The notes: generated from the letters alone by a model not told the origin. A stretch of DNA of 64,000 nt from Candidatus Omnitrophota bacterium (GCA_028712255.1 JAQTQJ010000005.1:20950-84949); one strand, 5' to 3'; positions 1 to 61,681 are shown, counted from the first letter of the stretch. Translations and numbers: made by a program.

Positions 1-1
1 T

Positions 2-6000: not shown

Positions 6001-9000
6001 AGAGGCCTTTGAGCCTAGTTTTCAAAGGGGCCAAACCAGGGTTGATTACGCAATAGTAATAGGTATGGCTTCTGTTTTAACTGCAGTTATTGGTTTAGTT
6101 TTTAATGTAGAGATTTTAGATATAATTAATCAGATCGGCTCCTGGCTTACTGTGCTTTTTCATAGCCCTCCAATACAAGTTAATTTTAATTCTTTACCCG
6201 CCATATCAATTGTAACTGCAATTCCCCTTATTTGTTTAATCGGAAATTTCACACATTTTAACTATGTTTTTGAGCCTCAAGGATATATGTTTTTACATGA
6301 AGATGAGGCTGTTCGGGGTTTAGCAAGGAGAGCATTTAATCTGGCTACAGGAGATTTCTATAGGCAGATATTTAAAGAGATTGGCTTAGGTGATAGGGTG
6401 AGAATATTAGATATCGGTTTCGGCGAAGGTTCACATGTAGCCAGCCTTCTTTCGCAAACAAGACATAAGATTGTTGGCCTTGAAGTTATGCCTGAGTATG
6501 TGAAAAAGGCAAGAGAGAAAGATCCTTTGCAGGAGGTGATTGAAAGCGGATGGTATCATATGCAATTTTCTGATAATTTTTTTAATGCAGTTAGCGGGGT
6601 TAATGCGCTTTATTTTGCCGGAAATGAAAAAGAGTTAAGATGGTTAATTACGGAAATTGACCGGGTAATTAAAGCAGGCCCTGACGGGGTAAAAAGGATT
6701 TATCAGCTTTTTGATCGGCCGCTTACCCAATATTGGTTTACTATTGAAGAATGGTCGGTAATGGAGTCTTTAGGTTTATCCACTCCTGCTTTAAGAGTGA
6801 TGAATAATGGATGGAGAAGATTCTTTACAGTCTTGAGTAGCATTTTTAATGAATTAGGTTATGAAGTTAAGCTTTCTTATGTAACCAAAGAGGCGCAAGG
6901 AGAACGCACTGTCTCTCAAAAACAATTAACTTCAAGCTCACGCGGAAATAAATTCTTCTATGATGTAAATGGCAATCGGTCAGTTGAATATAGTAGTTTG
7001 ATTAGTGAGCCCTATGTGGCAGAAGAGGTGGGCGTTTATATTGTGAGGGCATGGAGACGAGAATCCGTCACTAAAGAAGATATGGTGATTCCTTCTGTTG
7101 CCAACGGTTTCTTTGGAAAACATATAAAAATAGATCAAGCGATGGCAGAGAGGTTGATTAAAAGACTGTTTACTCCCGAAGAATTACCAATTGTTAGTTA
7201 TTCTATTGAGCGCCATGAAAATGCGGAAGCCAAAGGTAAGTCACACTGGAAAGCGATAGGTGAACAAAGGAAGGTAAGTGGATATGAATTGGTAAGGGCA
7301 AGGTTGGAATTGTTGCAGATTCTTATTTACTTAGGCTATAAGAATGAAGTGGATTTAATTTCTATGTTTACCGAAATCCAAAATTTATCTTCGCGTAAAG
7401 AATTCACTGATTTCCGGGATAAAATAAAATCAGCCAGAGATACTGAGCAATTAAGGTTAGTTCTGGATGGGTTAATTTCGGTATTCTGGGGCCAGGGTTA
7501 TAGTAATGTAAATAAATACATGCCTATCTTTGAGTTTTTGGTTAATGGTTTACTAGACAAAGATATTTTCAGATTTATAGAAAATTTAGATATACCGTTA
7601 GAAGAACAAGGGGTCCTTAAGAAATTTATAATTTCCTGCGCTACTTTCCATCAGCTAGCCTATATTATTTTTAGTCTATGGGGTATTAATGTGCAGGCTG
7701 CATTTGCTCCAAGCCATGCGTTTCTCCTTATGCCAATTAACCGGCAAAAGGCCATAATTGTTGATTACAGCCTTGAAGTGGTGCGTGTAATTGACCTTTG
7801 GAAATATACTCGGAAAGGAAGAAAATTTGTTCTAATAGAAGAATATCGGGCTCCGTTAGGAAGAGTAATTGCGATTCGTAAGCAAGTCCGCGATGGTAAT
7901 TTAAAAGACATAAGCAGCCTTTTAGACGAAGAATTACTTAGTTCATATTATCCATATATTGAAATTGTCCCAGCCTACGGTTTTACCACAGGTATTTATA
8001 ATGATGTGGGTACTGTTTATAAGGAATTGGGCATGTACCATGAAGCAGGTGGCTATTTTCAGCAAGCTATTAAATTAATGCCCAGTCTTCCTGATGTCCA
8101 CTTTAACTTAGGCGTTACCTATTGGTGTCAGAATAGACCAAGAGAAGCAGTTGAAGAATTAGAGTTAACTACTAAGTATGATCCCGATGACACCGATGCT
8201 TACTATAATCTTGGCACGATTAATTTAGAATTAGGCAGGCAACAAAAAGCAATGACGGCATTAATAAAAGCAATTGAGCTTAATCCCCTTTTAATCGAAG
8301 CCCGTTATAACTTAGCCAATATTTATATGACGCAGGGTAGGTATCTAGAAGCAATCGAACAATACGAAATAGTAATTGTAATAAAACCCGATTTTGCACA
8401 AGCCCATTATAATCTTGGTATAGCTTACTGGCAGATAGGTAATCGGGATAAGGCGTATGAGGTGTATATTCGAGCCATTATATTTTTTAGAAGATGTCTT
8501 AATACTTTACCTCCCGAGGAAGATATGGTCGGGACAAGAATAGATGATCATTCTGTTTCTGGTGCAACTGAAGATGATGTAAGGCGGGAGTTATTAAGAT
8601 TGAGGGAGTTAAGGCTGATTTCTGAATATACGTTAATAGAAGAGGATCATATAATAGAAAGAGCCAGTCAGCTCTATCAGCAATTAACTGGCAAGATAGT
8701 TGATCTTAGAATTTCCAATATTCATTTTAGAAGAGCTCCCTTCGCAAGTAGATACCGCGCTTTCTGGTTGCGCGAAGATAACAAAATAAAAATATATATA
8801 AAAGGAGAGGCTACGGCGTACGATATCCTGCATGAATTCCTGGCTATTTTAGACAAGACAGGCCATTTGTCTAATGTAATTCTTAGTTGTGCTTACCTGC
8901 CTTTATTTGCAAGGAGATTTATTTACAGAATTGTCAATGGTAGGAATAATTCTGCTGTAGATTTTGCTTCTTATGGGGGATTTGCGCGTTTAGGCAGGTT

Positions 9001-12000
9001 TTTAGTAGGGACGGTTCTTGCTCTAATTGGTAAGCTGTCCCTTAAAAGGGGCACTTCTAGCTTTGACACAAGAAACGACCCTAAAAATGTACCGCCTTTC
9101 GTTTTTATATCAGATAAATTCACTTCGCGCGAGAAGCAATTGATTCAAAAAATAACAGCCGAAGTTATTGGTTTGCTTGTCCCTCAAGAGAAGCAGCAAA
9201 AACTAGCCCTACACCCACTTTTTTTCAAGAGAGTGAATGCGTTTGATGTGCTTGTGGATCATAAATTCATATGTACTTTGTACATTCTCAGTGTGTTAAT
9301 TATGTCAGTCGTGAACATCATACTAGGCAGAGATTTATTTTTTAATATTACGACATATCTAGTTGTAGTAGCAATATTATGGGTTGTCATAAACTATAAG
9401 TTCTATAGTTCGGATTTTTCGTATTATATTCAAGGAATAAGGAGGAGGCATAAAATTCTTATTGGCTCTTATATATTTGATGAGCAACTGGTCTCTATGG
9501 TAGCGCATGAAATGTATCATTATCTGAATTCCATTGGTTTAATTAAAAATCCTGATTTAACAACAGCTTTTGACATGCTTTTTACTTTGGAACACTTTGG
9601 GGAAGAAGCTCTTGATGATCATGATTGGTTGGAAGCTGGAGAGATACTTATGGGGATTCCAAATCCGGAAGTTAGGGAAAAAATTTTGTTAAAAACTGCA
9701 AGAATCAGCAGGTTTGCTTTATTGATGAGAAAAGTTTTCGGGTATTTACCTGAGAGATCATGGGGATATATGTATGGGCGCCTCCAAGCAGCCAATGCTT
9801 ATGCATTATCGAGTGTTTTGAATGGCCCACAAGAGGTCAGTTTTATTGCTCGGGATGCCTTGGAATACATAATATTACGCGTCCATGGCTATGAGCCTGG
9901 CGCGGCAGAAGAAACCATTAGAACATATATAAATAATAGGAACAGTTCTGCTTCCATTGGAAAACCCCATCACCTGCGCCCCGTTACGCAGTGGTTGGCT
10001 GGCCAGATTCTCAGGATTGTTGCTCGTCAAAAAGATAATATTTTCTTTAAAGTCTATCGGGAAACCTACAATGCCAACTTAGCCTACATTCAAGAAATCA
10101 ATGGCAACCGAGGCCCGCCTATATTAAAGAAATTTCTTGCTTTTACTCGCCCCATTGCCCGCGGCCTTACTCCTGATGGCGCTATCTGTTGGCTTATTCC
10201 GGTTAAATTTACTACTCAAGAATACCTTTCCGATGAAACCATTGCCTCTATTAGTAAACACGAATCCCAATCTACAGAATTAGAAGGCTTAATCGCGCAG
10301 TATAAATTAGGGACAGTTCTGAAACCAATAGAGAACCGTTTCTCATTTAAGGGGCATTTTAGTTTCGGCTCAATAATCGTCTTCAATAGTTTTTTGAGGC
10401 GCCTGTTTATTTTAGCGGCATTTATAAGTTTAGGAATAGGGCTTTTTTATGCCGCGAGCATAAGCGGGTTGATGAATTGGTATTTGGAAATAAAGGGAGT
10501 TATTCCTGAAGGCTCTTTGATAGGCTCGCCGAAAGCCATATTATTAGATATGCTCACGGGGGTATTGATTTGGGGCTTGCCTGATTTAGCCGGGCAGTAT
10601 TTAAAAGGCAGCCGCATAATATTAAAACAGGCCTTTATTTTGGCTTTTGCCGGTTTCTTTATCGGCGCCCTTTTGCATTTACTTTATAATTTTCCCGAGG
10701 CCGTTCTTCCCTATTTTATGTCACTTTTGGCAAGCAATATCCTGTTGGCAAAAGTGGCAGCCATAGGCGTTGTCCTGGTGATCGGCGTAGGCATCGCCGT
10801 AAGTTATGGCCGCCTCATCTCTTATTTAAAAGCTAATTTCAGAAAAGAAGAGGAAACCGGCAGAGGAATAGAGGCTTTGAAACTTTATGAAGTGCTCTTG
10901 TATAAACTTTTTGTAACTCCAGTTGTTTTAATTTTCATCGTTTTAACGTTTGAGCCGGTATTGCGTGTATTAGTTTCATTGCCTGTTGAAATAATAAAGA
11001 TGATACCGGTAGGGTACCTTATGAACCGTAGAGAGCCGCTTTTTATCACAGGTATTATTCAAAATATTGCTAGGTTTAAGCATTCTGTTGGATATGCCCG
11101 CGGGCGCAAGGATGTTTCTTCTATGCTTGATTCTCAAACTACAAGCGGCCCGGTAAATGGGGACGCTCCCCAAGGGGACACCCTTTATTGCAGCATTATT
11201 CCGGTTGACCCCGCATTATTGGCGCGTTGGGGTAAGCTATTAGCAGGGATACTTCTTAAGCTAATCGAAAAAGTGTCCTGTATCCGTGAAGGGGACAGGT
11301 TCAGCTTTGGTGTAAGAAGCGTCCTTAAATCTATAGGTATCGTAGCGGTTTTTGTGGGCAGCGCTTTTATGATGGCGCATGGGTTAAAGTCAACTGCCGG
11401 CACTGAAGGCTCTTTTGATGTGTATAGTTATATAGTAATTTTTGCCGTTAGTTTTTTAGCAGTATTGTATTGCGTGCTGTTCTTAGGGGCAGCGCTAATA
11501 AACGCTATGACAGATGAATCCGCCAAGAGGGCTTTTGAGAATCAATCTCTCGGGGTATATTATTTGAACCGTGGGGAATACAAAATGGCAAGCTGGTATT
11601 TCAGAAGGGCTGTAGAGTTTGCTCGTAATAGCAGAAAAGACAAATTCCGTTCCGCGTTGGTTGTGGAGAATGTTATGATGGAGGTTTCACGGACAGATTT
11701 CGTAAAAGCATGTGAGCGCGCGCTGGATGCGATACGCAGGTATTTAGATTTAGGCCAGGCCAGAAAAGCAGCTGATATAAAGGTAGGCATTGATAATTCA
11801 ACAACTACAATTATAGCGAGAGAAAACGTGAGGCAGCATGGCCCATTTATGGTTACAAATGAAGAGCCTTTTTCTCATGGCTGTCTGCAATCAGAAATAG
11901 TAAACGCCGATGATCCCTGCGTGCAAAGAATATTAACTGGCGCTTTCGGCGGATTTAACGCCAACAGCCGCTATTACCTTCTCTTTGGCCATTTAGATAT

Positions 12001-15000
12001 GCCTGTTGCCTTAGCAGAAAAAAGAGGAGGCATTTTATCGGGAATAAGGCCTTATATAGAGAAAACGTCTGCAGTATCGCTTATCAGTTGCAGTATTAGG
12101 TATTATCAGATAACGCTTGCTTATTTATGCCGGTTAAGGGGGTTAGAAAATGAGCAGCCAAATAGAGAATTACTTAAAGATATAGAGAGAATCTATACCC
12201 CTAAAACGGCAGATGCATTGTATTTGATGTATTTTAAAACAGTATCCCGCCTCAGGCCTTTTGAAATAAAATTTTTCCATGCCTGGTTCCATTTCCATCC
12301 GTTTTTTAGATGGATAAAAGGGTTTGACCTTCTATATAGGGCGATGGATGATTTAATAGCGCGGGAATCGCAGGAAGTTATTTCCCAGGAAGAAGGATTA
12401 TTAAGAGAAGGGGGCAGGCTCATATATATCCTGCCTGAGCAGATTGAAGAGGTAGCAGCCCTTTGGGATAAATACCCTCGGGGCAAGCGCCAGCCTTTAA
12501 TTCAGTTTTTGGTTGAGTCCGCGCAGTTAAACAGTTATCTATGGGATAAGGAGAGTAGTTATCAGATATACGAACAATTAGCAGAAAGAATCATACCCAG
12601 GGTGTGGCTTACGGCGACATTGGATGAAGCAGGAATGCTTTGCGATTTAATATGGCTTTTATGCCTCAGCGGCTCATACCCGGTGCGCGCCAGATTAGCC
12701 CAAAGCGTATCGTCTTGTCTTTCCGGGCTAAAAACAAAACGAGAAGAAGCTCAGCAGGAAAAAGGAAAATCGCCGCTAATTAAGCTTCAGGCATATGTTC
12801 TGGAGGAGTTTCTTAAGGCCATATATGTAATGTTACTTGGAGACAGTTCGCCTGTAGTCGTAGCAGCAGCTGAAGGCGAGATACGCTTTTTGGTTGGCGC
12901 AAGAGCAATAACCCGCGAAGAATACCTAGCTATGGAAACTTTTTGCGCAGGAATAAAAACCGTACCTGAAATGTTACCAGGTATAGGATATACACCCATA
13001 ATTCCTGAAGGGGCAGAATTAAGATTGCCATATGCTGAAATGACTCAAGGCATAAGGGACATGCTTGGACTGGGTGATTTACCAATCGCCTATAGATTGT
13101 TAGATGAGGGGGTGCGGCGGATAGACCTTTTTAGCCAACAGAAACCGCGCCATCCTTTGGCTCGTCTTTTTGCTTGGCCTCGGGTGTTATTAAGAAGGCT
13201 TACTTTATTAGGCCACGGTGCTCCGAAGCAGTTGCCTGTTATCCGCGCCATCATCCTTAGCTCCCAGCGCCAGGCAGTAGAGAATGATATCATCCGTGCT
13301 CCCCCCGCTGTAATAGAAGAGGTTGACTTCCACCTTCAAGGCTTTGCCCCTGCCCACCACCAAGCCGGTAAGATTTGTTATGAGGAATTTTCTAATTTAA
13401 ATAATTTAATCGAAGCAGTGAGGCGAGCGCAGCATCCGTTCTTAATAAGCTATGCCAGCGGCAAATTTCATTTAGGAATTCTCTTAGATAAGGGGGCATC
13501 TTGGTTGTGCGGGAAGGATTATATTAAGCAAAAAAGGCAAGAGCATTATGTGGGCAGGTATTTTCGTTTAGAAGAAGAAAGAGACTTGGGCATACGAGAG
13601 CGTATATTTCAATTTGAAGCCGCGACAAGTAATCAGTTAGCAAAGGTTTTAGACGGCCAACAAGTTTTGATTATCGGCCCAGGGGATAATTTAGATGAAG
13701 CTGCATACTTTATTAGAAATTACCCGGGCTTAGCGAGAGTGGTAGTTGTAGATTGGCATCTGCCAAATATTATTGATATATTGGAAAAGATGGCAGGATT
13801 AGAGCAGCCTATTAGGGAAAAGATAGTATTGTGTTATAGCGATGCAGCAAGCATGGTTTTTGATGGGGTTTTTACTATTTGTTATTCACGGTATACAATG
13901 GTAGGCGATATCCTTTCTGATGCCGTCATTGATTCTATATGGAGCAGAATCGCCTTAGCGCTTCAGCCCGGCGGATTTTTCATCGGTTATGCGCATGAGG
14001 CTGCGGCATTTTTTGAGAGTTTTAGCAAGATTGCCGGAGGACAGAAATCAGTAAGTATTGCGGTGAGAAGAGAAGGTATCTCTAGGCCACTAGTTAAATT
14101 CGAGAGCAGGGACGGCAATGGGGACGTTTCCCAAGGGTACACCCTTCCAGCTACTGGTTTAGATGGTGAGCAAGTAGTAACTGACGGTATCGTACGTCTC
14201 AGTGCTTTTACAGGCGCGGGATTAATTATGGCCTCTGCGCAGACAGTTTTAAACAATAACTCCTATTATTTGGATCCGCTTTCAGATTCTATTTTCCAGC
14301 CTGCTTTTTTGCTCGAGCTTATGAATAGAGGCCCGCCTGTAGAGTTGTTCGGTATTTCCTCTGATTTATCAGCCCTCTTTTTAATTCCTCTTGTAGCATT
14401 CTTTGCTTTTCCCTCTTTAAGAAGATTTATAAGTACCTTCTGGGCTAGCTTAAAAAATAATCTCAGGGTGTCCCTTTTGAGGACGTCCTTAACAGTGCAA
14501 AAAATATTTGAAAGAGTATTAAATTTAATTAAATCTTTACTGCAAAGTAAAAAAACATCTAATGGCGCGTTTGCATTAGCTCTGTTGGAATTAAGAAAAG
14601 CAAAAGAAGGGCAAAATATTCCCGAAAGGTTAAGTGAAAAGTTAGCATACCTATTTGCATTAGCTGCAAAATATTCTCATTATTCATTCGAGTTTTATGA
14701 ATGGGAAGAATTGGCGCAAGCGGCGGGTTTAGAAAATCCTAAGAAAACAAGAGACTCAATGCCAGATACTAAAAAGGCAATCAGGGTAAGCGCATTTGAT
14801 GTTTATAGAATAGCTAGAAGTAATTGCGTAGAGAGAAGACATATCGAACTGTCATTCTTTAAGCGGTTAATTAGCGGTTCAAAAAGAGTTTTTCATGGCC
14901 GATATATTAAAACATATGGCATATGTGATTGCATAGCTGTAACTTTATATAACAGACAAAATAGAGTAGGGGCGTTATTGCATTTATATAGAGGTTCCAA

Positions 15001-18000
15001 AGTAGACAAGGTGGTAGATAAAGTTTCTTTAGAATTAGAAAGGGAGTTTAATTTAAGGCCTCAGGATTTCAAAGCGCAACTGGTCGGTGGTTGGTGGACG
15101 CAGTCTCAGGAGCTTGCACTAAAAATTACAAAATGCCTTGAAGAAAAACAGATAGCAATCGAAGGAATTGATGTTTTAAATAATCCCGAGAGGTTTATTT
15201 TTGATGGCAGGGACGCTTTCTACGGAGATTGTAGGATCATTTTAGATTTAGAAACAGGAGAAATATTTGATCTTATAGATTTAATAGAGCCTCACGACGG
15301 AATCTCAAGGCATATTATGCACTTTAGATATTACGCTGAATATATATTTAGGAGGATTTATAATGGAGGACAGCGAATGTTTGTTTTGGCTAAAAAAATT
15401 ACCGTTGTCCCCAATTTAAAGAAACTATTTTTAAGTTTATTAATTGCCATGTATTTTTTCTTAAGCCCCTTGCCTAGTAATATAAGTTTTATTGCTCCAG
15501 GGGTGGTTACAGCGAGTGCCCAGACGCCAACTCCTACCCAATTGTCTACTGAAGATGATTATCTAAATCGAGGTAACGAACATTTTTTTAAAAAAGAATA
15601 TGATGCGGCGATTGAAGATTATACTCAGACAATAAAATTAAACCCAACAAATGCCTTTGCTTATCATAATCGAGGAGTCTCATATAATAACAAAGTTGAT
15701 TATGATAGAGCGATTCGAGATTACGATCAGGCAATATTACTAAATCCAAAATATGCTGAGGCTTACAATAGCAGAGGTCTCGCTTATTATTTTAAAGGAG
15801 AAAATGAGAAAGCAATAAAAGATTATGATAGGGCAATAGAATTAGAACCCGATAATGTAAAGTTTAGAGATTTTCGAGCAGATGCTATAGGAAAATTATC
15901 GGTAAAACCAACTTCTACCCTTACAGCGACAGTTACGCGTACTCCTATACCTAAAACATCTACTCCTGTACTTAAATCATCTACGCCTACAGCAACAGCC
16001 ATACATACTCCCATCGTAACCAATTCGCCAACGCCAACATTTATGCCTATCGTATCTAGGGTGGCGACATGGACAGTAATACCTGTTTCCGCAGTTGAAG
16101 GCCCTGGAACGTTGGATAGGATCAAAGATCACTTGAAAGATAAGTGGTTGTGGTTAATTTTTACAATAGGACTAATAGCTATTTTTATTAAATGGAGACA
16201 GCGAATATTTATTTTTGCTCAAAAAATGGTCATTATTCCTAATTTAAAAGGATTTCTTAAATTTAAACCAGTCAGATTTTACTTAGGGTCGGGTAAAGAA
16301 ATTAATAAATTAACTATTCAAGAACGGCTATCTCTAGCCAAGCTGGCAGATCAATATTACGTTAAACAGATTAAGGATGTCCAGCCGAGCCTTATTTGTA
16401 CTGTTAAGAAAATCTTTAGCTTGAGGGGCCTGATCCTTATGTTGGCCGGAGGATTGATTACTTTTAAACTTTCTGTTTCCAATGATTGGCTTACTTTGGC
16501 CCTCGGAGCATTCTTTATGACTTTGTTGCCATACCTGCTTTCTGTCATCTATAATTTCTTCTTTTCATATATAGAACGCTATAGATTCCGTAGTGAATTT
16601 GTCAGGCAATATCTAAGAGATAAAAAAGTACAAGATAAAATAAAAGAAGAGCTTTCACAGATTAAGTCGGTGACTCAACCTTTACTTTCCATTAGAAGTT
16701 TATGGAATGATTTTACTTTAAGATCTCCTGTGTTTGCCGGTATTGTTATCTTTATTTTAGTAAAGGCCCAGATAGTTTTCTGGGGTTACTTAGCTGGTTT
16801 GGCAATTATCCCCTTGATTAGAATTGATATTGTTAACTTTACCTTAACTGGCATATTATCGACAATTTTAAAACTTATAAAATGGGAATGGTTTATCACT
16901 CCGGGTTTACAATTGGTAAATACATTAAATAATTTGGGTTTTGCTTTTACATTAGGGGATATTATTAAGTTGAGTGTAATTGCTTTAGGGTTAGCAATAC
17001 TATACACATCGCGCCACCGTAAAACATTACGTAAAATTGTTATTCATAATTTTAGGCAATTCTGGGTTAATCTAGTACACATCCTGGTTATTATTGCTAT
17101 AATGGGGAATCTCGGACTTAGTAGTTTTATGTTAAATAATTTCAAGCAAGCAACTGGAATTAGATTTCCTCAAGCGATTCATGCTCCTCTTAGCGGTAAA
17201 GTGGATGCAGGAATTTGGAATAGGGCTAATTTTATTTATCAACAGTTAAAAATAAATTCCGACTTAGCTTTGAAGATGGAGAACGGCCAGCAAGAATTGG
17301 AATTTCTATTAGAAGAATTTAAGGCGGGTAATGATATTAAAATCGAGGGGCCGACTGCTCCGGAGGTCAGGCAATTTTGTCTTTTCCTTCTGGGTCAGAA
17401 AGACAATACTCGGTCTAGAGAACTTCTTAATTTAGCTTTAAATGATCCGGATAAAGATGTACGCACGATGGCAATAATTTCTTTAAGTATAGCTGGCGAT
17501 ACGAAAGTAGCGTCTTTGCTTAATAATGCTTCGTTTAGGCAGGGAGGCCAGGTTCAGCAAGCGGCAGTTATTAGTTTGAAAAGTGTAAAGTCTTCTGAGG
17601 TAACGAATTTTCTACTAAAGAGTTTAAAGGATAATTCGCGTTCGGATATCCGTTCTGCTGCGGCAGGGGGGTTGATGGACAGAGTAAGCTTGCAGACAGT
17701 TAAAGATGCTTTGATATTCGCTTTAAATGATCCCGATCCGCTGGTAAGGAAAGCAGCGATTAAATCTTTGGCGCCGATAATCACAGCTGTAATTCCTCAA
17801 GTGGATTTAAAGACAATTGAGTCCATAAAACCACTTTTGTCTGATCCGGATTTGAATGTTCGTCAAGTTGCAATATTAGTTCTAGCTTTACGACTAGATG
17901 ATTTTCCTGGTAATTTAGGCCTTCTTATGCCTAAATTGACTGATTCTGATCAGCAGATTCGTTTGACTACCGTAGCAGCCGTAGGTTCACACCTAGATAA

Positions 18001-21000
18001 GTTTCCGCAATTAAAACAGTCATTTTCCAATATTGCTAAAGATAGTTCGCAGCCCATTGAGATTCGTAAAGCTGCAGTTTTAAGTTTAGGTAATCTAAAA
18101 GATTGGTATTATTTTGTATCTCTAGCTTCAGATCCTGATTGGCAAATACGGGAAATTGTAGCGACTTCTTTTGGCTATTTTGACCAGTTTCAAGCTTTAT
18201 CGTATCTTAGACCGTTATTAAAAGATGATTCTGCAAAAGTTAGATTAGCGGCAGTGAATTCTCTTAGTCATTTCGACGATCCTCAGGTCTCTGAGATTTT
18301 AATCTCGATATTAGAGGATCATGACTTGCAAGTCCGAGAATCTGCGCTTAATATATTAGTTGATAAGAAGCCTCTGGAATTAAAACAGGTGTTCTTGGAT
18401 GTTGGTAGGGATATCTCTCAACCTGCTGAGGTTAGGCAAGATACGCTTCTATATTTATGCAATATAGATTTCTTAAAACGCAATATTTCATCGCCCAATA
18501 GAGCTCAGTATGTTGGTGGTTATAATTTTTTAATTAGTTCAGAAAAACTTCAAAGGGTAGCCTTATTGTTAGGTAATCTGAAAGGTATAATGATTCTTGA
18601 TTTACTTAAGCCTTTAACTAAGGATCTTAATGGGCCGGTGCGGGGAGCCGCTGCTACTTCACTTGGTAATTTTGACCAACCGGAAACCATAGATTATCTT
18701 AAGCCGCTTTTAAATGATTATGAGTGGCCAGTGAGAGTGGCAGCAATGCGTTCTTTAATTAAATTTAATGATCCTCGAGTTGCTGAATTATTAATTCCCC
18801 TGTTAACTCGCCCTGTTTTAGTAGAACCAATAGGTTATAATCCGTGGGTCCGAGAATATACGATTAGCGCCTTGGCTGACAATATAAATCGACCTGAAGT
18901 AAGGGAGATTTTTTTAGGTTTATTAAAATCTTCGTTTAGGGAGGAAGACGCGATTCTGTCAATAATTTCCCAGGCAAATTTAAAGACAATTGAGTCCGTA
19001 GAACCATTTTTGTCTGATCCTAATCCAAGTGTTCGGCGAATTGCAGTATTAGTTTTAGCTTCAAGGTTAGATGATTTTCCTGAAACATTAACTTTCCTTA
19101 TTCCACTTTTTAATGATAATGATTCACAGGTTCGCTCTACCGCTGTTTCAGCCTTAGCTCCGTATATAGGTAAATTTTCGCAATTAAAGCAGCCATTTTT
19201 CAATATTGTTAAAGATGTTTCTCAGCCTATCGAGGCACGCCAGAACGCATTATTTTATTTATCGAAGCTCGATGTCCCGGAAGTAAAAGCTTTGTTAGTT
19301 AGTAATTTAAATAATACTGACTGGAAAATGCGCCAGGCTGCAGTATTAGGTTTAGGTAATCTCAAGGATTCTGAAATTCCCGATTTACTTAAGCCTTTAA
19401 TTCGGGACCCTTACGAGAATGTCAGGCAAGCCGTTGTAACCTCTCTTGGTAATTTTAATCAACCCCAGGTAATTAGTTATCTTAAACTGTTTCTAAATGA
19501 TGATTCTTCGAATGTGCGTAAAAGTGCGATATTATCTATAGGTTCAAGGTTGGATGATTTTCCTGAAAATGTAACTCTTCTTACTCCACTTTTTAATAAT
19601 AAAGATTCACAGGTTCGCTCTGCTGCTGTCTTAGCTTTAGGCCCATACCTAGATAAGTTTCCGCAATTAAAGCAGCCATTTCTGGATATTACTAAAGATG
19701 TTTCGCAACCTATCGAGGCACGCCAGAATGCATTATTTTATTTGTCGAAGCTCGATGTTCCGGAAGTAAAGGCTTTATTAACTAGTAATTTAACTAGCAC
19801 TGATTGGAAAATGCGCCAGGTTGCAGTATCAGGTTTAGGTAATTTTCGAGGCCCCGAAATCTCTGGCCTACTTCAACCTTTAACCTTAGATCCTATTTCG
19901 GCTGTACGTGTGAGTGTTGCATTATCTTTGGGCCAATTAGATGAACCCCAGGCAGCGCAATCATTAGCATTTTTATTAAAAGATAATGATGTTTCTGTTC
20001 GTCAAGCCGCGTTGACATCTTTAGGTCTAAAGTTAGATCTTTTTCCTAAGAATTTAGATCTTTTGATACCGTTTTTAACTGACCCAAATTTACAGATTCG
20101 CTCTACTGCCGTTTCAGTCTTAGGACCAAGTATAGATAAATTCCCACAATTAAAACAACCATTCCTAGATATTGCTAAGGGTCTTTCTATGCCTATTGAT
20201 ATGCGTCAAAATGCGATGTTTTCTTTATCTAAGCTTGATACTCCTGAAGTAAAAGCTCTGCTAACTAGTAATTTAGCTAATACTGATTGGAGAATGCGTC
20301 AGGTTGCAGTATTGGGCTTGGGTAATTTTAAAGGTCCTGAAATCCTAGATCTGCTTAAACCTTTAACCCTTGATCCTGCCTGGCAGGTCAGACAAGCTAC
20401 TGCAACTTCTTTTGGTAACTTCAACCAACCTCAAACTATAGATTACCTTAAGCCGCTTTTAAGTGATAGTTATTGGCAAGTACGGTCGGCTACTACGGCC
20501 TCTCTTGGTAATTTTAATAATCCTCAAGTTCTAGATTCTCTTATCCCTAGACTAAATGATCCTGCTTGGCAGGTACGCGAGAGTACGGCAGTGTCTTTGG
20601 GTCAATTCGATGAATCCAAGATGGTGGAATCATTAATGCCTTTATTAAAAGATAATAATGTTTTTGTGCGGCAAGCCGCTGTATTATCCTTAGGAGATAA
20701 AGTTAGATTGTACCCGCAGTTGTCAGGAGAATTTGTCAATATTTTAAAAACAGACAACGATCTTTGGATTAAACAAATCTCTGCTTTTTCTCTGCAAAGT
20801 ATAAATACGCCGAAGGTAGAGGAAGTAAAACCATTAATTAAACAAGCCACTTCAGAAATAAGAGTTGTCGTTATTATATCTGGAATTGATGATTGGTTAG
20901 GATTTTTTCCCTTGACGGGTCGTAAAACAGGTGAGACTGGATTGAAAAATTGGTCTTTAGTTAATATACTAAAAGCGGGTGGTTTACAGGTGGTTGAACA

Positions 21001-21796
21001 TCCTTGGTCTGGAAATCTTCCTCTTCCTGGATTTCCAGGAAGTATTACTGGAAAAGAGTTTCGGAAGTCACAATTAGATTTAGATAAAACTATTAATCAT
21101 GCATTAGATTTAGCTAATGGAGGCAAGATAGGGGTTATTCTTTATAGCGGCGGTAATTATGTCGCAGAAAGATTATTTGAATCAGATTTATCTCCAAGAA
21201 TAAGGGAGGCATTTGAAGCAGGCAGGATACATATCGATAGTTTAGGCAATCCTTCTACCAAAAACTTCGGCTTATTAGATCCTAATTGGAAAAATATTTG
21301 GTCAATGAGTGACCCTATTTCTATATTGTCTATAATACCCCTTGGTATACATGATGTTTACTTTCCCAATCTTTCCCATTTTTCATATCAATATCCTAAT
21401 GTTATTTCTTATTTAGGGAATGATATAGCTCATTGGAATTACACTCCTACAAGTGGCTCTTGGCCGGGTACCTATAATTTTAATAGCATTGCGCCTTCTG
21501 ATTATTGGAAACAGCAACAATTTCAACAACCCAATTTTGGGTTACCTCAATATCAACCCTTTCCAAGTCAATCACCGTTGAATAATTATCAGCCGCTTCA
21601 GCAGTATCAGCCGTCTATATTGCAACCACAGCAGCCTTTATATCAACCTCCGCCAAGTGAACTTTTTAAAATACAATCACCGATAAATGATTATCAGTCA
21701 TCTCAACAGTATCAATCGCCGATGAGGGATTATCAGCCTTCGATGGCTCAACCTAATCTTCCATCTCTACCTAATTTCGGTGGGATTGGGAAATAA
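2..21796 (+). CDS. Giant multidomain membrane-associated protein of at least 7,245 aa. The reading frame is open to the 5' window edge, so the first candidate start (TTG at 59) may not be the true start. It carries multiple TM clusters, a SAM-MTase motif, HEXXH, a CheD-like motif, TPR blocks, a HEAT/PBS-like repeat array, and a Q/P/Y-rich C-terminal tail.
   Basis: A single uninterrupted 21.7 kb frame in 40% GC DNA is very unlikely by chance. Six-frame track gives 59..21796. I hand-translated the frame back to position 2 and found no stop. Recognisable motifs: ILDIGFGEG (nt about 6404-6430), HEMYH (9506-9520), GICDCIAVTLYN...ALLHLYRG (about 14917-14990), TPR consensus blocks (about 7990-8470 and 15540-15870), and 30-aa LxDxDxxVRxxAxxALG repeats (about 17400-20720). 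Confidence 0.85.
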   Translation, partial: SFLVEITKGGRISDGALEVLAEAFGRINITGADKELHLAALVSIVYLVLPGIDVSEVMSIYLEKEKEYLTGVGLKERVNLAAFVGLMAMLYYQDKNGRDGVLFKNSLSILRTFISESYLNVRDVLEVALEQDMELAMELFHWILIEKADFLFSALTATDIDEAGETDFIIDGVFLADYLLMHTMYLTVIKPDSKRLVKLLKIDPLNTLIKTAMAEAVNPAAKGLDFFVGYSNVEKFFKRFFYPGMASEVELVNEINERLNSFPQRDALGEALEIELLVRFLSDEDIGIFSDTRKNIKSRASILIASVKECVSPAVMSRSGLQRADAIIAEKVKKFIGGDGLLNKEAMAGLLEAIIYFSEDVLMDIFSNVVVPFATKGQFNFGGRTYNVEPGQVSKATEISVSSLIRVYLGHGHPQFEMLKPIFRRNIRKIYELSPDPGKRIIRASIEEAGADTHEVLEVNERTITFHAQLPRQLVLINLAKDKYVQRSDILETSVTEIKRGNAITVTAEPLTFKQEEIVRQAIVDGLTQNSGRMLTAEELAEHDPKGTVSKNKTIVYVLPELAITDHFLVAYANRQMFGMRVFISEAKWVFIKGLHEDTKVEFWKHEVLGHLKHPLWSEAEVKAKYPSEMVVIPATDQATLPQMLKLALEYGDPIAAVTLTREKFRNYGPPNEPVNWDEYLVWLVEKRHTYALEQILNSTPDDREKIKALMERIIFIKTNNPKLRKIEYSPEIKQKLLDVWIFALYSPDIEKLTSALALLEELNAQYPYQNDGLEDGDLVVGKTARPCLTFQIKTQVTKERKRKLVNSLREAIVALGFGELKIQDTQECPLSAFAESLLAQNRCIVPAGTQVVFQDIAGRYAIILKPNIGREYSVAFSDRQTLQSEDFTVAGSFVPGSTRIQDIEIVVGGIRKNLLDFIVEKGFAPEAIKENSLFLEASCCFIYNPSDGKLRMIEGRQVKQFKYKADTGEITWWNSYLPRLKIFSDNQTGSARGVLPGEKVIFVHSHGIKRRKEELRASSMDVDFGIAWTRWSSIFRVGLSNSQSDLVMGTGDSHDLIISETRNGFKFLLLHCSVQENYAVCMSKKYNFSTHRWENEGIEKIEFASGIPGASYAKNGGVTLVCRDNAEALPTDADSWGRRLALSHEAISADFLSNGDYACAIAALRLALVHLPKGVKNKNIRDRIQEKLAQLIVGREASHPNNGSNHSELDLGASGFEGEAMFAERAAEVKYAQSHCVSKLNNDNELIEGVRCFLRQLDLFRLADKYKEIEVRVIGGMGFKHRGWWNIENGRLIIYIKETYASDVLDLQKVILHEILAASRNPVFAGKEGHNNSLALECLYTSFCLDSKQMTIGELLRSYDPHGLLRRIIFRAILSHQEVIDAKLDLGASAKKRQPEPTVSSLSRVAKVILCLILASVVIVAHAVWLLLLIMFGGASQFNLMDIFGINITWGWLIMMETMIAVGLMFASFIMDDGSIVISDVNLHKGHTSPRATEEDIVLSNEQAIMWIQVKQEQGAKTISVLGGKPVSIKEAIEGVNDGRFAGSLTGGDNKLILQVKYPSEKLPTNAYNSDVPCATPPVLTIIDTYEAAEEFFIRRGWKSLPRWVVGIFVSPWYEFQFKWILHPVKFIRAHINKNIWQLISRITGVIFMYAAMLCFLFPAIYLFLTAPSFNVLPNIIQSVLYGIMAFIGVHFVYNIVFFWAMLVLGDDLRFHSEYKRVFTAQQIRGFISWLIEGELQHERQRIVIGFVEGYSEGIFRREGVRIHVAKEFLDSFSELLIRQKLRNALVDRDYKEQDQYSRALELIIQQANIILGPQLFEDSSVEIVDLARRYLIDAVVKHSAWLITFSGILSVWEGVVHSMESQVDARQFGEFMNRLYRIAIKELDVEWVIRKGAVLDREIMVVIGRKMLSLIPDHNFEPTIYSVLMITPDFSLEEVRKRIMYLLSDCITDETINSLKEILVKLDKEKINPEAQAKVIMALKYLCFDVNPGISKFARILLEAFEPSFQRGQTRVDYAIVIGMASVLTAVIGLVFNVEILDIINQIGSWLTVLFHSPPIQVNFNSLPAISIVTAIPLICLIGNFTHFNYVFEPQGYMFLHEDEAVRGLARRAFNLATGDFYRQIFKEIGLGDRVRILDIGFGEGSHVASLLSQTRHKIVGLEVMPEYVKKAREKDPLQEVIESGWYHMQFSDNFFNAVSGVNALYFAGNEKELRWLITEIDRVIKAGPDGVKRIYQLFDRPLTQYWFTIEEWSVMESLGLSTPALRVMNNGWRRFFTVLSSIFNELGYEVKLSYVTKEAQGERTVSQKQLTSSSRGNKFFYDVNGNRSVEYSSLISEPYVAEEVGVYIVRAWRRESVTKEDMVIPSVANGFFGKHIKIDQAMAERLIKRLFTPEELPIVSYSIERHENAEAKGKSHWKAIGEQRKVSGYELVRARLELLQILIYLGYKNEVDLISMFTEIQNLSSRKEFTDFRDKIKSARDTEQLRLVLDGLISVFWGQGYSNVNKYMPIFEFLVNGLLDKDIFRFIENLDIPLEEQGVLKKFIISCATFHQLAYIIFSLWGINVQAAFAPSHAFLLMPINRQKAIIVDYSLEVVRVIDLWKYTRKGRKFVLIEEYRAPLGRVIAIRKQVRDGNLKDISSLLDEELLSSYYPYIEIVPAYGFTTGIYNDVGTVYKELGMYHEAGGYFQQAIKLMPSLPDVHFNLGVTYWCQNRPREAVEELELTTKYDPDDTDAYYNLGTINLELGRQQKAMTALIKAIELNPLLIEARYNLANIYMTQGRYLEAIEQYEIVIVIKPDFAQAHYNLGIAYWQIGNRDKAYEVYIRAIIFFRRCLNTLPPEEDMVGTRIDDHSVSGATEDDVRRELLRLRELRLISEYTLIEEDHIIERASQLYQQLTGKIVDLRISNIHFRRAPFASRYRAFWLREDNKIKIYIKGEATAYDILHEFLAILDKTGHLSNVILSCAYLPLFARRFIYRIVNGRNNSAVDFASYGGFARLGRFLVGTVLALIGKLSLKRGTSSFDTRNDPKNVPPFVFISDKFTSREKQLIQKITAEVIGLLVPQEKQQKLALHPLFFKRVNAFDVLVDHKFICTLYILSVLIMSVVNIILGRDLFFNITTYLVVVAILWVVINYKFYSSDFSYYIQGIRRRHKILIGSYIFDEQLVSMVAHEMYHYLNSIGLIKNPDLTTAFDMLFTLEHFGEEALDDHDWLEAGEILMGIPNPEVREKILLKTARISRFALLMRKVFGYLPERSWGYMYGRLQAANAYALSSVLNGPQEVSFIARDALEYIILRVHGYEPGAAEETIRTYINNRNSSASIGKPHHLRPVTQWLAGQILRIVARQKDNIFFKVYRETYNANLAYIQEINGNRGPPILKKFLAFTRPIARGLTPDGAICWLIPVKFTTQEYLSDETIASISKHESQSTELEGLIAQYKLGTVLKPIENRFSFKGHFSFGSIIVFNSFLRRLFILAAFISLGIGLFYAASISGLMNWYLEIKGVIPEGSLIGSPKAILLDMLTGVLIWGLPDLAGQYLKGSRIILKQAFILAFAGFFIGALLHLLYNFPEAVLPYFMSLLASNILLAKVAAIGVVLVIGVGIAVSYGRLISYLKANFRKEEETGRGIEALKLYEVLLYKLFVTPVVLIFIVLTFEPVLRVLVSLPVEIIKMIPVGYLMNRREPLFITGIIQNIARFKHSVGYARGRKDVSSMLDSQTTSGPVNGDAPQGDTLYCSIIPVDPALLARWGKLLAGILLKLIEKVSCIREGDRFSFGVRSVLKSIGIVAVFVGSAFMMAHGLKSTAGTEGSFDVYSYIVIFAVSFLAVLYCVLFLGAALINAMTDESAKRAFENQSLGVYYLNRGEYKMASWYFRRAVEFARNSRKDKFRSALVVENVMMEVSRTDFVKACERALDAIRRYLDLGQARKAADIKVGIDNSTTTIIARENVRQHGPFMVTNEEPFSHGCLQSEIVNADDPCVQRILTGAFGGFNANSRYYLLFGHLDMPVALAEKRGGILSGIRPYIEKTSAVSLISCSIRYYQITLAYLCRLRGLENEQPNRELLKDIERIYTPKTADALYLMYFKTVSRLRPFEIKFFHAWFHFHPFFRWIKGFDLLYRAMDDLIARESQEVISQEEGLLREGGRLIYILPEQIEEVAALWDKYPRGKRQPLIQFLVESAQLNSYLWDKESSYQIYEQLAERIIPRVWLTATLDEAGMLCDLIWLLCLSGSYPVRARLAQSVSSCLSGLKTKREEAQQEKGKSPLIKLQAYVLEEFLKAIYVMLLGDSSPVVVAAAEGEIRFLVGARAITREEYLAMETFCAGIKTVPEMLPGIGYTPIIPEGAELRLPYAEMTQGIRDMLGLGDLPIAYRLLDEGVRRIDLFSQQKPRHPLARLFAWPRVLLRRLTLLGHGAPKQLPVIRAIILSSQRQAVENDIIRAPPAVIEEVDFHLQGFAPAHHQAGKICYEEFSNLNNLIEAVRRAQHPFLISYASGKFHLGILLDKGASWLCGKDYIKQKRQEHYVGRYFRLEEERDLGIRERIFQFEAATSNQLAKVLDGQQVLIIGPGDNLDEAAYFIRNYPGLARVVVVDWHLPNIIDILEKMAGLEQPIREKIVLCYSDAASMVFDGVFTICYSRYTMVGDILSDAVIDSIWSRIALALQPGGFFIGYAHEAAAFFESFSKIAGGQKSVSIAVRREGISRPLVKFESRDGNGDVSQGYTLPATGLDGEQVVTDGIVRLSAFTGAGLIMASAQTVLNNNSYYLDPLSDSIFQPAFLLELMNRGPPVELFGISSDLSALFLIPLVAFFAFPSLRRFISTFWASLKNNLRVSLLRTSLTVQKIFERVLNLIKSLLQSKKTSNGAFALALLELRKAKEGQNIPERLSEKLAYLFALAAKYSHYSFEFYEWEELAQAAGLENPKKTRDSMPDTKKAIRVSAFDVYRIARSNCVERRHIELSFFKRLISGSKRVFHGRYIKTYGICDCIAVTLYNRQNRVGALLHLYRGSKVDKVVDKVSLELEREFNLRPQDFKAQLVGGWWTQSQELALKITKCLEEKQIAIEGIDVLNNPERFIFDGRDAFYGDCRIILDLETGEIFDLIDLIEPHDGISRHIMHFRYYAEYIFRRIYNGGQRMFVLAKKITVVPNLKKLFLSLLIAMYFFLSPLPSNISFIAPGVVTASAQTPTPTQLSTEDDYLNRGNEHFFKKEYDAAIEDYTQTIKLNPTNAFAYHNRGVSYNNKVDYDRAIRDYDQAILLNPKYAEAYNSRGLAYYFKGENEKAIKDYDRAIELEPDNVKFRDFRADAIGKLSVKPTSTLTATVTRTPIPKTSTPVLKSSTPTATAIHTPIVTNSPTPTFMPIVSRVATWTVIPVSAVEGPGTLDRIKDHLKDKWLWLIFTIGLIAIFIKWRQRIFIFAQKMVIIPNLKGFLKFKPVRFYLGSGKEINKLTIQERLSLAKLADQYYVKQIKDVQPSLICTVKKIFSLRGLILMLAGGLITFKLSVSNDWLTLALGAFFMTLLPYLLSVIYNFFFSYIERYRFRSEFVRQYLRDKKVQDKIKEELSQIKSVTQPLLSIRSLWNDFTLRSPVFAGIVIFILVKAQIVFWGYLAGLAIIPLIRIDIVNFTLTGILSTILKLIKWEWFITPGLQLVNTLNNLGFAFTLGDIIKLSVIALGLAILYTSRHRKTLRKIVIHNFRQFWVNLVHILVIIAIMGNLGLSSFMLNNFKQATGIRFPQAIHAPLSGKVDAGIWNRANFIYQQLKINSDLALKMENGQQELEFLLEEFKAGNDIKIEGPTAPEVRQFCLFLLGQKDNTRSRELLNLALNDPDKDVRTMAIISLSIAGDTKVASLLNNASFRQGGQVQQAAVISLKSVKSSEVTNFLLKSLKDNSRSDIRSAAAGGLMDRVSLQTVKDALIFALNDPDPLVRKAAIKSLAPIITAVIPQVDLKTIESIKPLLSDPDLNVRQVAILVLALRLDDFPGNLGLLMPKLTDSDQQIRLTTVAAVGSHLDKFPQLKQSFSNIAKDSSQPIEIRKAAVLSLGNLKDWYYFVSLASDPDWQIREIVATSFGYFDQFQALSYLRPLLKDDSAKVRLAAVNSLSHFDDPQVSEILISILEDHDLQVRESALNILVDKKPLELKQVFLDVGRDISQPAEVRQDTLLYLCNIDFLKRNISSPNRAQYVGGYNFLISSEKLQRVALLLGNLKGIMILDLLKPLTKDLNGPVRGAAATSLGNFDQPETIDYLKPLLNDYEWPVRVAAMRSLIKFNDPRVAELLIPLLTRPVLVEPIGYNPWVREYTISALADNINRPEVREIFLGLLKSSFREEDAILSIISQANLKTIESVEPFLSDPNPSVRRIAVLVLASRLDDFPETLTFLIPLFNDNDSQVRSTAVSALAPYIGKFSQLKQPFFNIVKDVSQPIEARQNALFYLSKLDVPEVKALLVSNLNNTDWKMRQAAVLGLGNLKDSEIPDLLKPLIRDPYENVRQAVVTSLGNFNQPQVISYLKLFLNDDSSNVRKSAILSIGSRLDDFPENVTLLTPLFNNKDSQVRSAAVLALGPYLDKFPQLKQPFLDITKDVSQPIEARQNALFYLSKLDVPEVKALLTSNLTSTDWKMRQVAVSGLGNFRGPEISGLLQPLTLDPISAVRVSVALSLGQLDEPQAAQSLAFLLKDNDVSVRQAALTSLGLKLDLFPKNLDLLIPFLTDPNLQIRSTAVSVLGPSIDKFPQLKQPFLDIAKGLSMPIDMRQNAMFSLSKLDTPEVKALLTSNLANTDWRMRQVAVLGLGNFKGPEILDLLKPLTLDPAWQVRQATATSFGNFNQPQTIDYLKPLLSDSYWQVRSATTASLGNFNNPQVLDSLIPRLNDPAWQVRESTAVSLGQFDESKMVESLMPLLKDNNVFVRQAAVLSLGDKVRLYPQLSGEFVNILKTDNDLWIKQISAFSLQSINTPKVEEVKPLIKQATSEIRVVVIISGIDDWLGFFPLTGRKTGETGLKNWSLVNILKAGGLQVVEHPWSGNLPLPGFPGSITGKEFRKSQLDLDKTINHALDLANGGKIGVILYSGGNYVAERLFESDLSPRIREAFEAGRIHIDSLGNPSTKNFGLLDPNWKNIWSMSDPISILSIIPLGIHDVYFPNLSHFSYQYPNVISYLGNDIAHWNYTPTSGSWPGTYNFNSIAPSDYWKQQQFQQPNFGLPQYQPFPSQSPLNNYQPLQQYQPSILQPQQPLYQPPPSELFKIQSPINDYQSSQQYQSPMRDYQPSMAQPNLPSLPNFGGIGK
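17400..20720 (+). repeat. Intragenic HEAT/PBS-lyase-like repeat array inside the giant ORF. Three tandem super-repeats of about 483 bp (161 aa) start near 19179, 19662 and 20145; an older diverged copy starts near 18005.
   Basis: Protein shows recurring DPxxxVRxxAxxxLGN units. Nucleotide stretches such as 19179-19320 and 19662-19800 are about 90% identical at a 483-bp offset. Confidence 0.75.
21490..21796 (+). repeat. Low-complexity Gln/Pro/Tyr-rich C-terminal tail of the giant protein, with YQP/QQYQ repeats.
   Basis: Translation reads KQQQFQQPNFGLPQYQPFPSQSPLNNYQPLQQYQPSILQPQQPLYQPP... Confidence 0.7.
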
Positions 21797-22394: not shown

Positions 22395-23005
22395 TTAGTT
22401 CCAACGGAACGGTTCCGTTCTTTGAAAAGCTTGTTAGAAATATCTTCTTTCTCCGTCTATTGTCTTAGGAGGGAGGGTATATGGCAAGACAAGAGAGAAT
22501 TTACTTTGAGAATGCTGTTTACCACATAACAATAAGAGGTAATAATAAACAAAATATCTTGAAGCAAGACGAGGATAAAAAAAGTTTTCTTGAGTCTTTA
22601 GTAAGATTCAAATCTCGTTTTGGATTTAAGCTCCACGCTTTCGTTTTAATGGATAACCACGTTCATCTTATTATTGGGACTAACAGTAAGATAAATATAT
22701 CAAAGATTATGCATGCCATAACGCTGTCTTACAGCGTTAAGTTTAGGAGAAAGTATCTTTATTCTGGATACGTTTGGCAGGGAAGGTTCAAAAGTAATGT
22801 CATTGATGGTGATAGATATATTATTGAATGTTTAAACTATATCCATAACAATCCCGTAAGGGCAGGCATGGTTACAAGGGTCGAAGATTACTTTTGGAGT
22901 AGTTATCAATTTTGCAATGGATTAGAAAATAAAATTAAAGATTATATTCAGATAGATTGGTTTAAGGATAATTAAAAAGGGGACAGTTCCTTTGGAACGT
23001 TATAT
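22395..23005 (+). mobile_element. RAYT unit: tnpA(REP)-like gene bracketed by short palindromes, 22403-22419 aacggaacggttccgtt and 22979-22999 ggggacagttcctttggaacg.
   Basis: The hairpins share the GGGGAC(A/G)GTTC core with the dispersed hairpin family found elsewhere in the window. Confidence 0.6.
22481..22975 (+). CDS. REP-associated tyrosine transposase (RAYT, IS200/IS605 TnpA-like, HUH family).
   Basis: Motifs NAVYHITIRGNN, FVLMDNHVHLII (HUH), YVWQGRF (catalytic Tyr region) and NYIHNNPV. RBS ggagggagggtatATG. Flanked on both sides by GGAAC/GTTCC hairpins. Confidence 0.85.
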   Translation: MARQERIYFENAVYHITIRGNNKQNILKQDEDKKSFLESLVRFKSRFGFKLHAFVLMDNHVHLIIGTNSKINISKIMHAITLSYSVKFRRKYLYSGYVWQGRFKSNVIDGDRYIIECLNYIHNNPVRAGMVTRVEDYFWSSYQFCNGLENKIKDYIQIDWFKDN

Positions 23006-61525: not shown

Positions 61526-61681
61526 CGCCAGAAATCGTGGCGAATCCGCCATGTATTATGGCGGAATTTACTTACCCTATTTTTACGCAATTGGTTATCC
61601 AGTTGAGCAAATTAATCGAAACAGTTTCCAGCCCAATCGGGAAATGGGGTTTAAGAGAAGAAACTATTTATGGGAGGTGAG

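Follow-up and report, generated by a model that had tools for sequence, protein, structure and literature searches.

A CheD/NTAN1-like domain, a probable cysteine amidohydrolase, within a giant membrane protein of a Candidatus Omnitrophota bacterium

CheD is a soluble protein of ~160 amino acids (aa) that deamidates protein side chains and, in Thermotoga maritima, is also a glutamate methylesterase. NTAN1 is a cytosolic eukaryotic enzyme that converts N-terminal Asn to Asp. The two have corresponding triads, Cys27/His44/Thr21 in CheD (2F9Z; PF03975) and Cys75/His92/Ser69 in NTAN1 (human 6A0E; PF14736), and the NTAN1 substitutions C75A and H92A abolish deamidation (PMC7022378). Here we describe a related domain of ~150 residues in a 64,000-nucleotide (nt) stretch of a Candidatus Omnitrophota genome (GCA_028712255.1, JAQTQJ010000005.1:20950-84949; the window), where it forms part of a membrane protein longer than 7,245 aa. 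The host protein fits the description of the 'Archaeovorin'-type giant proteins of Omnitrophota (giant, with multiple transmembrane (TM) helices, HEAT and TPR repeats, and a methyltransferase domain; West-Roberts et al. 2023 preprint). The domain has the CheD fold and triad, and belongs to a separate family of bacterial proteins; it is probably an active cysteine amidohydrolase that acts on protein or peptide side chains outside of chemotaxis, as judged by analogy with CheD and NTAN1.

The giant open reading frame (ORF), the domain, and its key residues are positioned as follows, in window coordinates:

1..21796, + strand: giant ORF, a multi-pass membrane protein with its N-terminus outside the window
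14891..15283, + strand: core of the CheD/NTAN1-like putative cysteine amidohydrolase domain (aa ~4945–5075), the sole copy in the window
14912..14914, + strand: codon ACA of Thr4952, predicted third triad member that would orient the His (CheD Thr21, NTAN1 Ser69)
14930..14932, + strand: codon TGC of Cys4958, predicted nucleophile (CheD Cys27, NTAN1 Cys75) and second Cys of 'CDC'
14981..14983, + strand: codon CAT of His4975, predicted general base (CheD His44, NTAN1 His92)
15086..15091, + strand: Gly5010-Gly5011 (in 'AQLVGGW'), closing a beta-strand (compare AKIAGG in CheD and HLVGGF in NTAN1)
15284..15370, + strand: C-terminal extension of the domain (aa ~5076–5104), a predicted helix modelled to aa ~5102 with lower confidence (~57–64 in the predicted local distance difference test, pLDDT)

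The initial annotation had proposed a CheD-like catalytic core from the motif RYIKTYGICDCIAVTLYNRQNRVGALLHLYRG, which is present exactly as quoted (aa 4948–4979, nt 14900–14995). The interval it gave, 14880–15170, does cover a CheD-like region, but only the N-terminal ~70% of the domain, and leaves out the conserved C-terminal strands (CRIILDLETGEIF, nt ~15224–15262). The spacing of the triad, with Thr at –6 and His at +17 relative to the Cys, is the same in the giant protein as in CheD (T21/C27/H44), and in NTAN1 the spacing is again identical, with Ser in place of Thr (S69/C75/H92).

Pairwise, profile, and structural comparisons all relate the domain to CheD. BLASTP aligns it with T. maritima CheD over 71 residues (E=9e-6), and the motif T-x5-C-x16-H falls on the CheD triad without a gap, such that T4952, C4958, and H4975 occupy the catalytic positions. 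A profile of the family described below, searched against the sequences of the PDB, matches CheD 2F9Z with E=4.5e-16 (profile positions 5–130 on chain residues 7–144), human NTAN1 with E=1.2e-6, and a YfiH-family protein with E=5.6e-3; hhalign of the family against 28 Thermotogota CheDs gives a probability of 99.4% (E=3e-21, 122 columns). An AlphaFold2 model of the domain, built from the 46-sequence family alignment without templates, has a mean pLDDT of 80.1 (~95 in the core) and a predicted template modelling score of 0.74, and shows the alpha/beta/beta sandwich of 2F9Z. Foldseek comparison of this model with the PDB returns the same order as the profile search (CheD, E=1.9e-8; NTAN1, ~1e-6; YfiH, ~1e-3), so that CheD is the top match by both routes and the CheD-like fold first proposed from the motif holds. 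The domain and CheD also have in common the Gly-Gly motif and a C-terminal 'ETG' strand. Overall identity is ~19%, and a single-sequence phmmer search of the domain against the PDB finds no match at E≤10.

Relatives were collected with phmmer from 1.84 billion representative proteins (E≤1e-3). This yielded 45 proteins, which together with the query domain form the family alignment A1 (46 sequences). One relative, with 80% identity across the domain, is a near-orthologue; another is 37% identical (E=3e-16) and the remaining ones are 24–41% identical, mostly 140–440 aa in length but with additional proteins of 962, 1,112, and 3,629 aa. The mean column identity of the alignment is only 24%, yet Cys4958, His4975, and Gly5011 are invariant (46/46), in line with the conservation of Cys and His that the initial annotation had put forward as a check. 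Thr4952, Gly5010, and three other positions are conserved in at least 90% of the sequences. The family motifs are T..G...C(V/I)A.TLYD...K.G.LAH, EA(R/Q)L(I/V)GG, and LD..TGE. Because Cys and His persist in sequences this divergent, selection appears to act on catalysis.

A leave-out profile made from 44 relatives, lacking both the query and its 80%-identical relative, was searched against the six-frame translation of the window, where its sole match lay in the giant ORF (112.9 bits for the domain, E=1.6e-34). On the family profile the query scores 122 bits over the whole sequence and 112.9 bits for the domain. By these scores the giant-protein domain is a member of a separate, unnamed bacterial family, to which we refer as A1. 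The motif noticed originally is short and might have resembled CheD by chance, with no homologous domain behind it; the leave-out profile and the BLASTP match to T. maritima CheD lead us to reject this explanation, whose probability is negligible. Other searches were less productive: a word-indexed protein search returned no match with the domain and three proteins only with the family alignment, and no relative was found in a genome-contig scan with the domain or in metagenome-contig scans that started from the domain and from an alignment of 3 sequences. The PADLOC defence models match neither the domain nor the four relatives that were compared with them.

Although CheD is the closest known structure, the domain is not a CheD orthologue as judged from its sequence. 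The Pfam model PF03975, which the initial annotation had suggested as a test, does not match the query at E≤1, and in those relatives that it does match, the match begins well after the Cys-His motif. The NCBIfam CheD models score the query at 13.9 bits (CheD_Thtga, cutoff 240) and 13.2 bits (PRK13490, cutoff 251), far below threshold. On a Thermotogota CheD profile the query reaches 14.5 bits, compared with 253–279 bits for true CheDs and with the 122 bits of the query on its own family, and true CheDs score only 52–82 bits on the A1 profile. Positions that are invariant within the Thermotogota-only CheD set (KYAD, MF, and DTGG..ARS) are unconserved in the A1 family. None of the scanned window ORFs of at least 150 aa encodes CheA, CheW, CheR, CheB, CheC, or a methyl-accepting chemotaxis protein (MCP), and no che genes lie beside the relatives P0036, P0043, P0033, and P0002, whose four contigs were readable. 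Moreover, a chemotaxis role is unlikely because many of the relatives appear to carry signal peptides, which is at odds with a cytoplasmic enzyme. That a true chemotaxis CheD has become fused to the giant protein, where it would deamidate or demethylate MCPs and interact with CheC, could be supposed from the ranking of the structural and profile matches and from the name 'MCP glutamine deamidase CheD' given by IMG to the relative P0040 (962 aa); set against the failed curated cutoffs, the far higher score on its own family, and the lack of che neighbours, this identity is rejected and is exceedingly improbable.

The A1 family also approaches NTAN1. The query itself scores 11.2–12.7 bits on the Pfam model N_Asn_amidohyd (PF14736), below the gathering threshold of 24, but 34 of the 46 family members match this model and 18 match Pfam CheD, with a few above both gathering scores; those above the N_Asn_amidohyd threshold include P0007 (43.7 bits) and P0004 (35.5 bits). 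Since members match both Pfam models, the family sits between CheD and NTAN1, and its members are, by these matches, a sequence bridge from bacterial CheD to eukaryotic NTAN1. The NTAN1 structure paper claims no sequence similarity of NTAN1 to known proteins (PMC7022378). The A1 family links CheD and NTAN1 by sequence and occurs outside chemotaxis. The four proteins P0004, P0007, P0003, and P0012 (~400–440 aa) exceed the threshold for N_Asn_amidohyd (maximum 43.7 vs 24), for CheD (maximum 34.8 vs 25), or for both; the domain is C-terminal in P0003, P0004, and P0007 and central (aa ~144–282) in P0012.

The triad of NTAN1 on a CNF1/YfiH-like fold is present in the giant-protein domain, with Thr substituting for Ser at –6, whereas the features that confer NTAN1 specificity are not found. 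Recognition of N-terminal Asn by NTAN1 depends on an appended C-terminal region (Ser254, Thr255, Glu260) and on Thr73/Thr74 preceding the Cys (PMC7022378). That region is ~115 residues long; in the giant protein only ~45 residues, including one low-confidence helix, separate the core from the TM helix that starts at aa 5120, and Cys-Asp stands before the nucleophile in place of Thr-Thr. NTAN1 is furthermore cytosolic and eukaryotic, and the domain described here is bacterial and membrane-embedded. The domain is thus not NTAN1, and orthology is rejected on the sub-threshold score and the missing specificity features. An NTAN1-like N-terminal asparagine amidase, converting Asn to Asp on processed proteins in an N-degron-type function, would accord with the identical Cys/His spacing and with the Pfam matches of most A1 members, but for the same reasons we regard it as very unlikely.

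Other relationships are more remote. The best Pfam score of the query is to Cu-oxidase_4 (PF02578; 18.6–19.8 bits, profile positions 94–146 of 238), which falls short of the gathering threshold of 22.9 bits. The weak matches to Cu-oxidase_4, N_Asn_amidohyd, and the NCBIfam CheD models all lie in one structural superfamily, which was a first hint of homology, and the domain has the attributes of the CNF1/YfiH-like superfamily, namely a beta-sandwich fold with a predicted Cys nucleophile and His base. The YfiH/PgeF/YlmD proteins themselves (PF02578; 1Z9T, 6T1B, 7FBG) are much more distant from the domain than CheD and NTAN1, are larger (~240–270 aa), bind metal, and have nucleosides or peptidoglycan precursors as substrates, as in the editing of UDP-MurNAc peptides by PgeF/YfiH. 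Similarity to the toxin deamidases CNF1 (1HZG) and BLF1 (6RVU) is structural and only remote. Two relatives, P0007 and P0010, have weak matches to the C-terminal domain of the type III effectors XopAK/HopK1 of Xanthomonas and Pseudomonas (NF041406; 22–23 bits, E~3e-5 to 8e-5, far below the NCBIfam cutoff of 150); the query does not match this model. According to a review, the C-terminus of XopAK has a catalytic domain predicted to be a 'deaminase' (PMC11116571), and the XopAK/HopK1 C-terminal domain may constitute one more branch of this superfamily.

In the reaction that we propose, His4975, oriented by Thr4952, would deprotonate Cys4958, and the resulting thiolate would attack the side-chain carboxamide of a Gln or Asn in a protein or peptide, with departure of NH3 and formation of a thioester. 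Hydrolysis of the thioester by water would then leave Glu or Asp. Hydrolysis of a glutamyl methyl ester could also occur, by analogy with T. maritima CheD. If the domain is cytoplasmic, its target would be either the giant protein itself or a partner close to the membrane.

The position of the domain relative to the membrane is predicted from hydropathy and the positive-inside rule only. The predicted flanking TM helices, and the larger cassette to which the domain belongs, are:

14354..14410, + strand: TM helix upstream of the domain (aa 4766–4784; Kyte-Doolittle), with an Arg/Lys-rich C-terminal flank
15416..15472, + strand: TM helix downstream of the domain (aa 5120–5138; Kyte-Doolittle), with a Lys/Arg-rich N-terminal flank
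14120..15424, + strand: cassette consisting of a TM helix, a helical region, the CheD-like domain, and the start of the next TM helix (aa 4688–5122), 72% identical to MDO8489173.1

The domain lies in the ~330-residue loop between the two helices, and beyond the helix at aa 5120–5138 come three TPR repeats and a Thr/Pro-rich linker. Counted over 15 residues to either side of three TM helices (these two and aa 5359–5377), Lys+Arg number 10 on the side of the domain and 3 on the other side. By the positive-inside rule these counts place the domain in the cytoplasm and the next loop, with its TPR repeats and Thr/Pro-rich linker, outside. We therefore favour, by a modest margin, a cytoplasmic location of the domain loop.

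The cassette recurs in MDO8489173.1 (P0001), the near-orthologue, a Candidatus Omnitrophota protein of 1,417 aa annotated as 'hypothetical protein'. The two proteins have only one other block in common (aa 1391–1554, window 4229–4720, 34% identity), and because the rest of MDO8489173.1 differs, the cassette appears to have been shuffled between large proteins rather than inherited by simple orthology. The closest non-orthologous relatives are P0002 and P0033. P0002 (1,112 aa) has the CheD-like module followed by a low-molecular-weight phosphatase domain. P0033 (3,629 aa) contains HATPase_c and Peptidase_M48 domains and has the CheD-like module at its C-terminus, with the M48 domain upstream. 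A Cys-His enzyme inside a giant multidomain protein, together with this M48 arrangement, might suggest that the domain is a peptidase for autoprocessing, cleaving the giant protein into fragments in the manner of cysteine protease domains in large toxins; with CheD and NTAN1, both side-chain deamidases, as the closest matches, we consider it highly improbable.

Several observations weigh against a side-chain amidohydrolase that works in the cytoplasm. We infer the amidohydrolase activity of the A1 family by analogy with CheD and NTAN1, and the AlphaFold2 model rests on 46 sequences, with ~25 residues at each terminus of low confidence. Strict alternation of TM helices starting from the methyltransferase domain places the domain loop outside, except that if a weakly hydrophobic segment at aa ~4722–4742 (mean Kyte-Doolittle score ~1.4) is also a TM helix, the loop is inside. 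Using a crude heuristic, about 16 of the 45 relatives have signal-peptide-like or lipoprotein-like N-termini (e.g. MRPLLLVVLLACASGASASP and MKTLFLLLSLFSITVSAQ; including P0013, P0018, P0019, P0020, P0024, P0031, P0037, P0038, and P0045). By the same heuristic both P0002, which has an N-terminal signal or anchor only, and P0033, whose N-terminus is signal-like and whose interior shows no convincing TM helix, look exported whole. Much of the CheD/NTAN1-like A1 family thus seems, from these N-termini, to work outside the cytoplasm, unlike CheD and NTAN1. The substrate is also not guaranteed to be a protein, because the superfamily includes enzymes acting on small molecules and peptidoglycan precursors (YfiH/PgeF). 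Finally, CheD of B. subtilis is reported to act largely through binding to receptors and CheC, and less through catalysis (PMC3513319).

The behaviour of B. subtilis CheD would be a precedent for a non-catalytic binding or regulatory module, in which the CheD-like fold serves only to bind a partner or some other region of the giant protein, but the absolute conservation of Cys and His across divergent sequences makes this quite improbable. Amide hydrolysis in a non-protein substrate, such as a peptidoglycan precursor or cell-wall peptide, the amidated isoglutamine or meso-diaminopimelate of a prey or host wall, or a nucleoside, could be in keeping with Cu-oxidase_4 as the best, though sub-threshold, Pfam score, with the export-like relatives, and with the link between Omnitrophota giant proteins and cell-wall degradation drawn in the West-Roberts preprint. 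However, the protein and peptide side-chain deamidases CheD and NTAN1 are much closer in sequence and structure, and the charge bias favours the cytoplasm for the giant-protein copy; we judge a non-protein substrate to be distinctly unlikely. It is likewise unlikely, if somewhat less so, that the domain is an exported or prey-directed CheD/NTAN1-type 'warhead' that would deamidate host or prey proteins or cell-wall amides in the manner of CNF1 and BLF1 and represent a new class of secreted effector. If it were, A1 would be an often signal-peptide-bearing class present in several huge proteins, and maybe related to XopAK/HopK1. Side-chain amidohydrolysis of a protein or peptide by the domain remains the reading that we consider probable.

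This module was previously unannotated. A full-text literature search for a CheD-like or PF14736 module returned nothing relevant, and CheD, NTAN1, deamidase, and amidohydrolase are absent from the main text of both the 2023 giant-gene and the 2026 complete-genome Omnitrophota preprints, so that the host protein differs from the published accounts of 'Archaeovorin'-type giants in having such a module. Pfam-based catalogues would miss it because the query lies under every Pfam threshold. The initial annotation considered the module unusual for a giant protein; this agrees with its absence from the two surveys, but not with its presence in other large proteins (3,629, 1,417, 1,112, and 962 aa). 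The family is a branch, so far uncharacterised, of an enzyme superfamily that is itself well known, and not a new kind of system; its chemistry is conventional, no new mechanism is implied, and its significance is moderate. The giant proteins of Omnitrophota are mostly 'dark', with Pfam recognising only repeats and one methyltransferase domain in the protein described here, and a confidently assigned catalytic domain with mutable residues (C4958, H4975, and T4952) provides a biochemical entry point to them. The often export-like character of the A1 family suggests that bacterial protein and peptide deamidation extends more widely than chemoreceptor maturation and toxins.

The giant ORF is listed as 59..21796 (+ strand) with a TTG start at nt 59 and a product of 7,245 aa. 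However, the frame has no stop codon between this start and base 2 of the window, so that the protein lacks its N-terminus here and its true length exceeds 7,245 aa. No competing ORF of at least 40 aa is present on either strand over nt 14700–15500. A Pfam scan of the giant protein identifies TPR repeats, the single methyltransferase domain (aa 2116–2207), and at least 15 HEAT_2 stretches, and a Kyte-Doolittle scan shows many hydrophobic helices. A segment just upstream of the CheD-like domain (aa ~4530–4720; 'VLIIGPGDN...VVVVDW...LQPGGFFI'), considered as a possible CheR-like methyltransferase, has no Pfam match and no significant match among PDB sequences, and it does not resemble the Methyltransf_25 domain of the giant protein.

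Elsewhere in the giant protein, a single HExxH motif (VAHEMYHYL; HEMYH at aa 3150, ~9506–9520, + strand) directly follows a TM hairpin, and two similar segments of the form '...IYIK(E/G)...(I/D)LHE(I/F)LA...' are located at aa ~1295 and aa ~2925; all of them are candidates for metallopeptidase-like modules. The HEAT-repeat region contains a 483-bp unit in 2.7 tandem copies with 74% identity (19062–20377, + strand), encoding near-identical 161-aa blocks ('...LKQPFLDI.KD.SQPIEARQNALFYLSKLDVPEVKALL...'), a pattern that points to recent duplication within the gene. The C-terminal tail (~21320–21793, + strand; aa ~7090–7245) has an extremely high content of Gln, Pro, and Tyr ('QYQPFPSQSPLNNYQPLQQYQPSILQPQQPLYQPPP...'), a low-complexity, prion-like composition.

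The giant gene is followed, ~700 bp past its stop codon, by an ORF for an IS200-like Y1 transposase (22481–22975, + strand; Pfam Y1_Tnp, E=7.8e-18). The scanned ORFs of the window also encode sugar and phosphate ATP-binding cassette transporters, ribonucleotide reductase, a two-component system, ammonium transporters, and others, as well as MnmG, which is encoded downstream and shares up to 84% identity with its counterparts in Candidatus Omnitrophota metagenome-assembled genomes; this identity assigns the window to an Omnitrophota genome. The two ammonium-transporter genes are close together at the end of the window (59658–60884 and 61670–62908, + strand; Pfam Ammonium_transp, E~1e-130 each).

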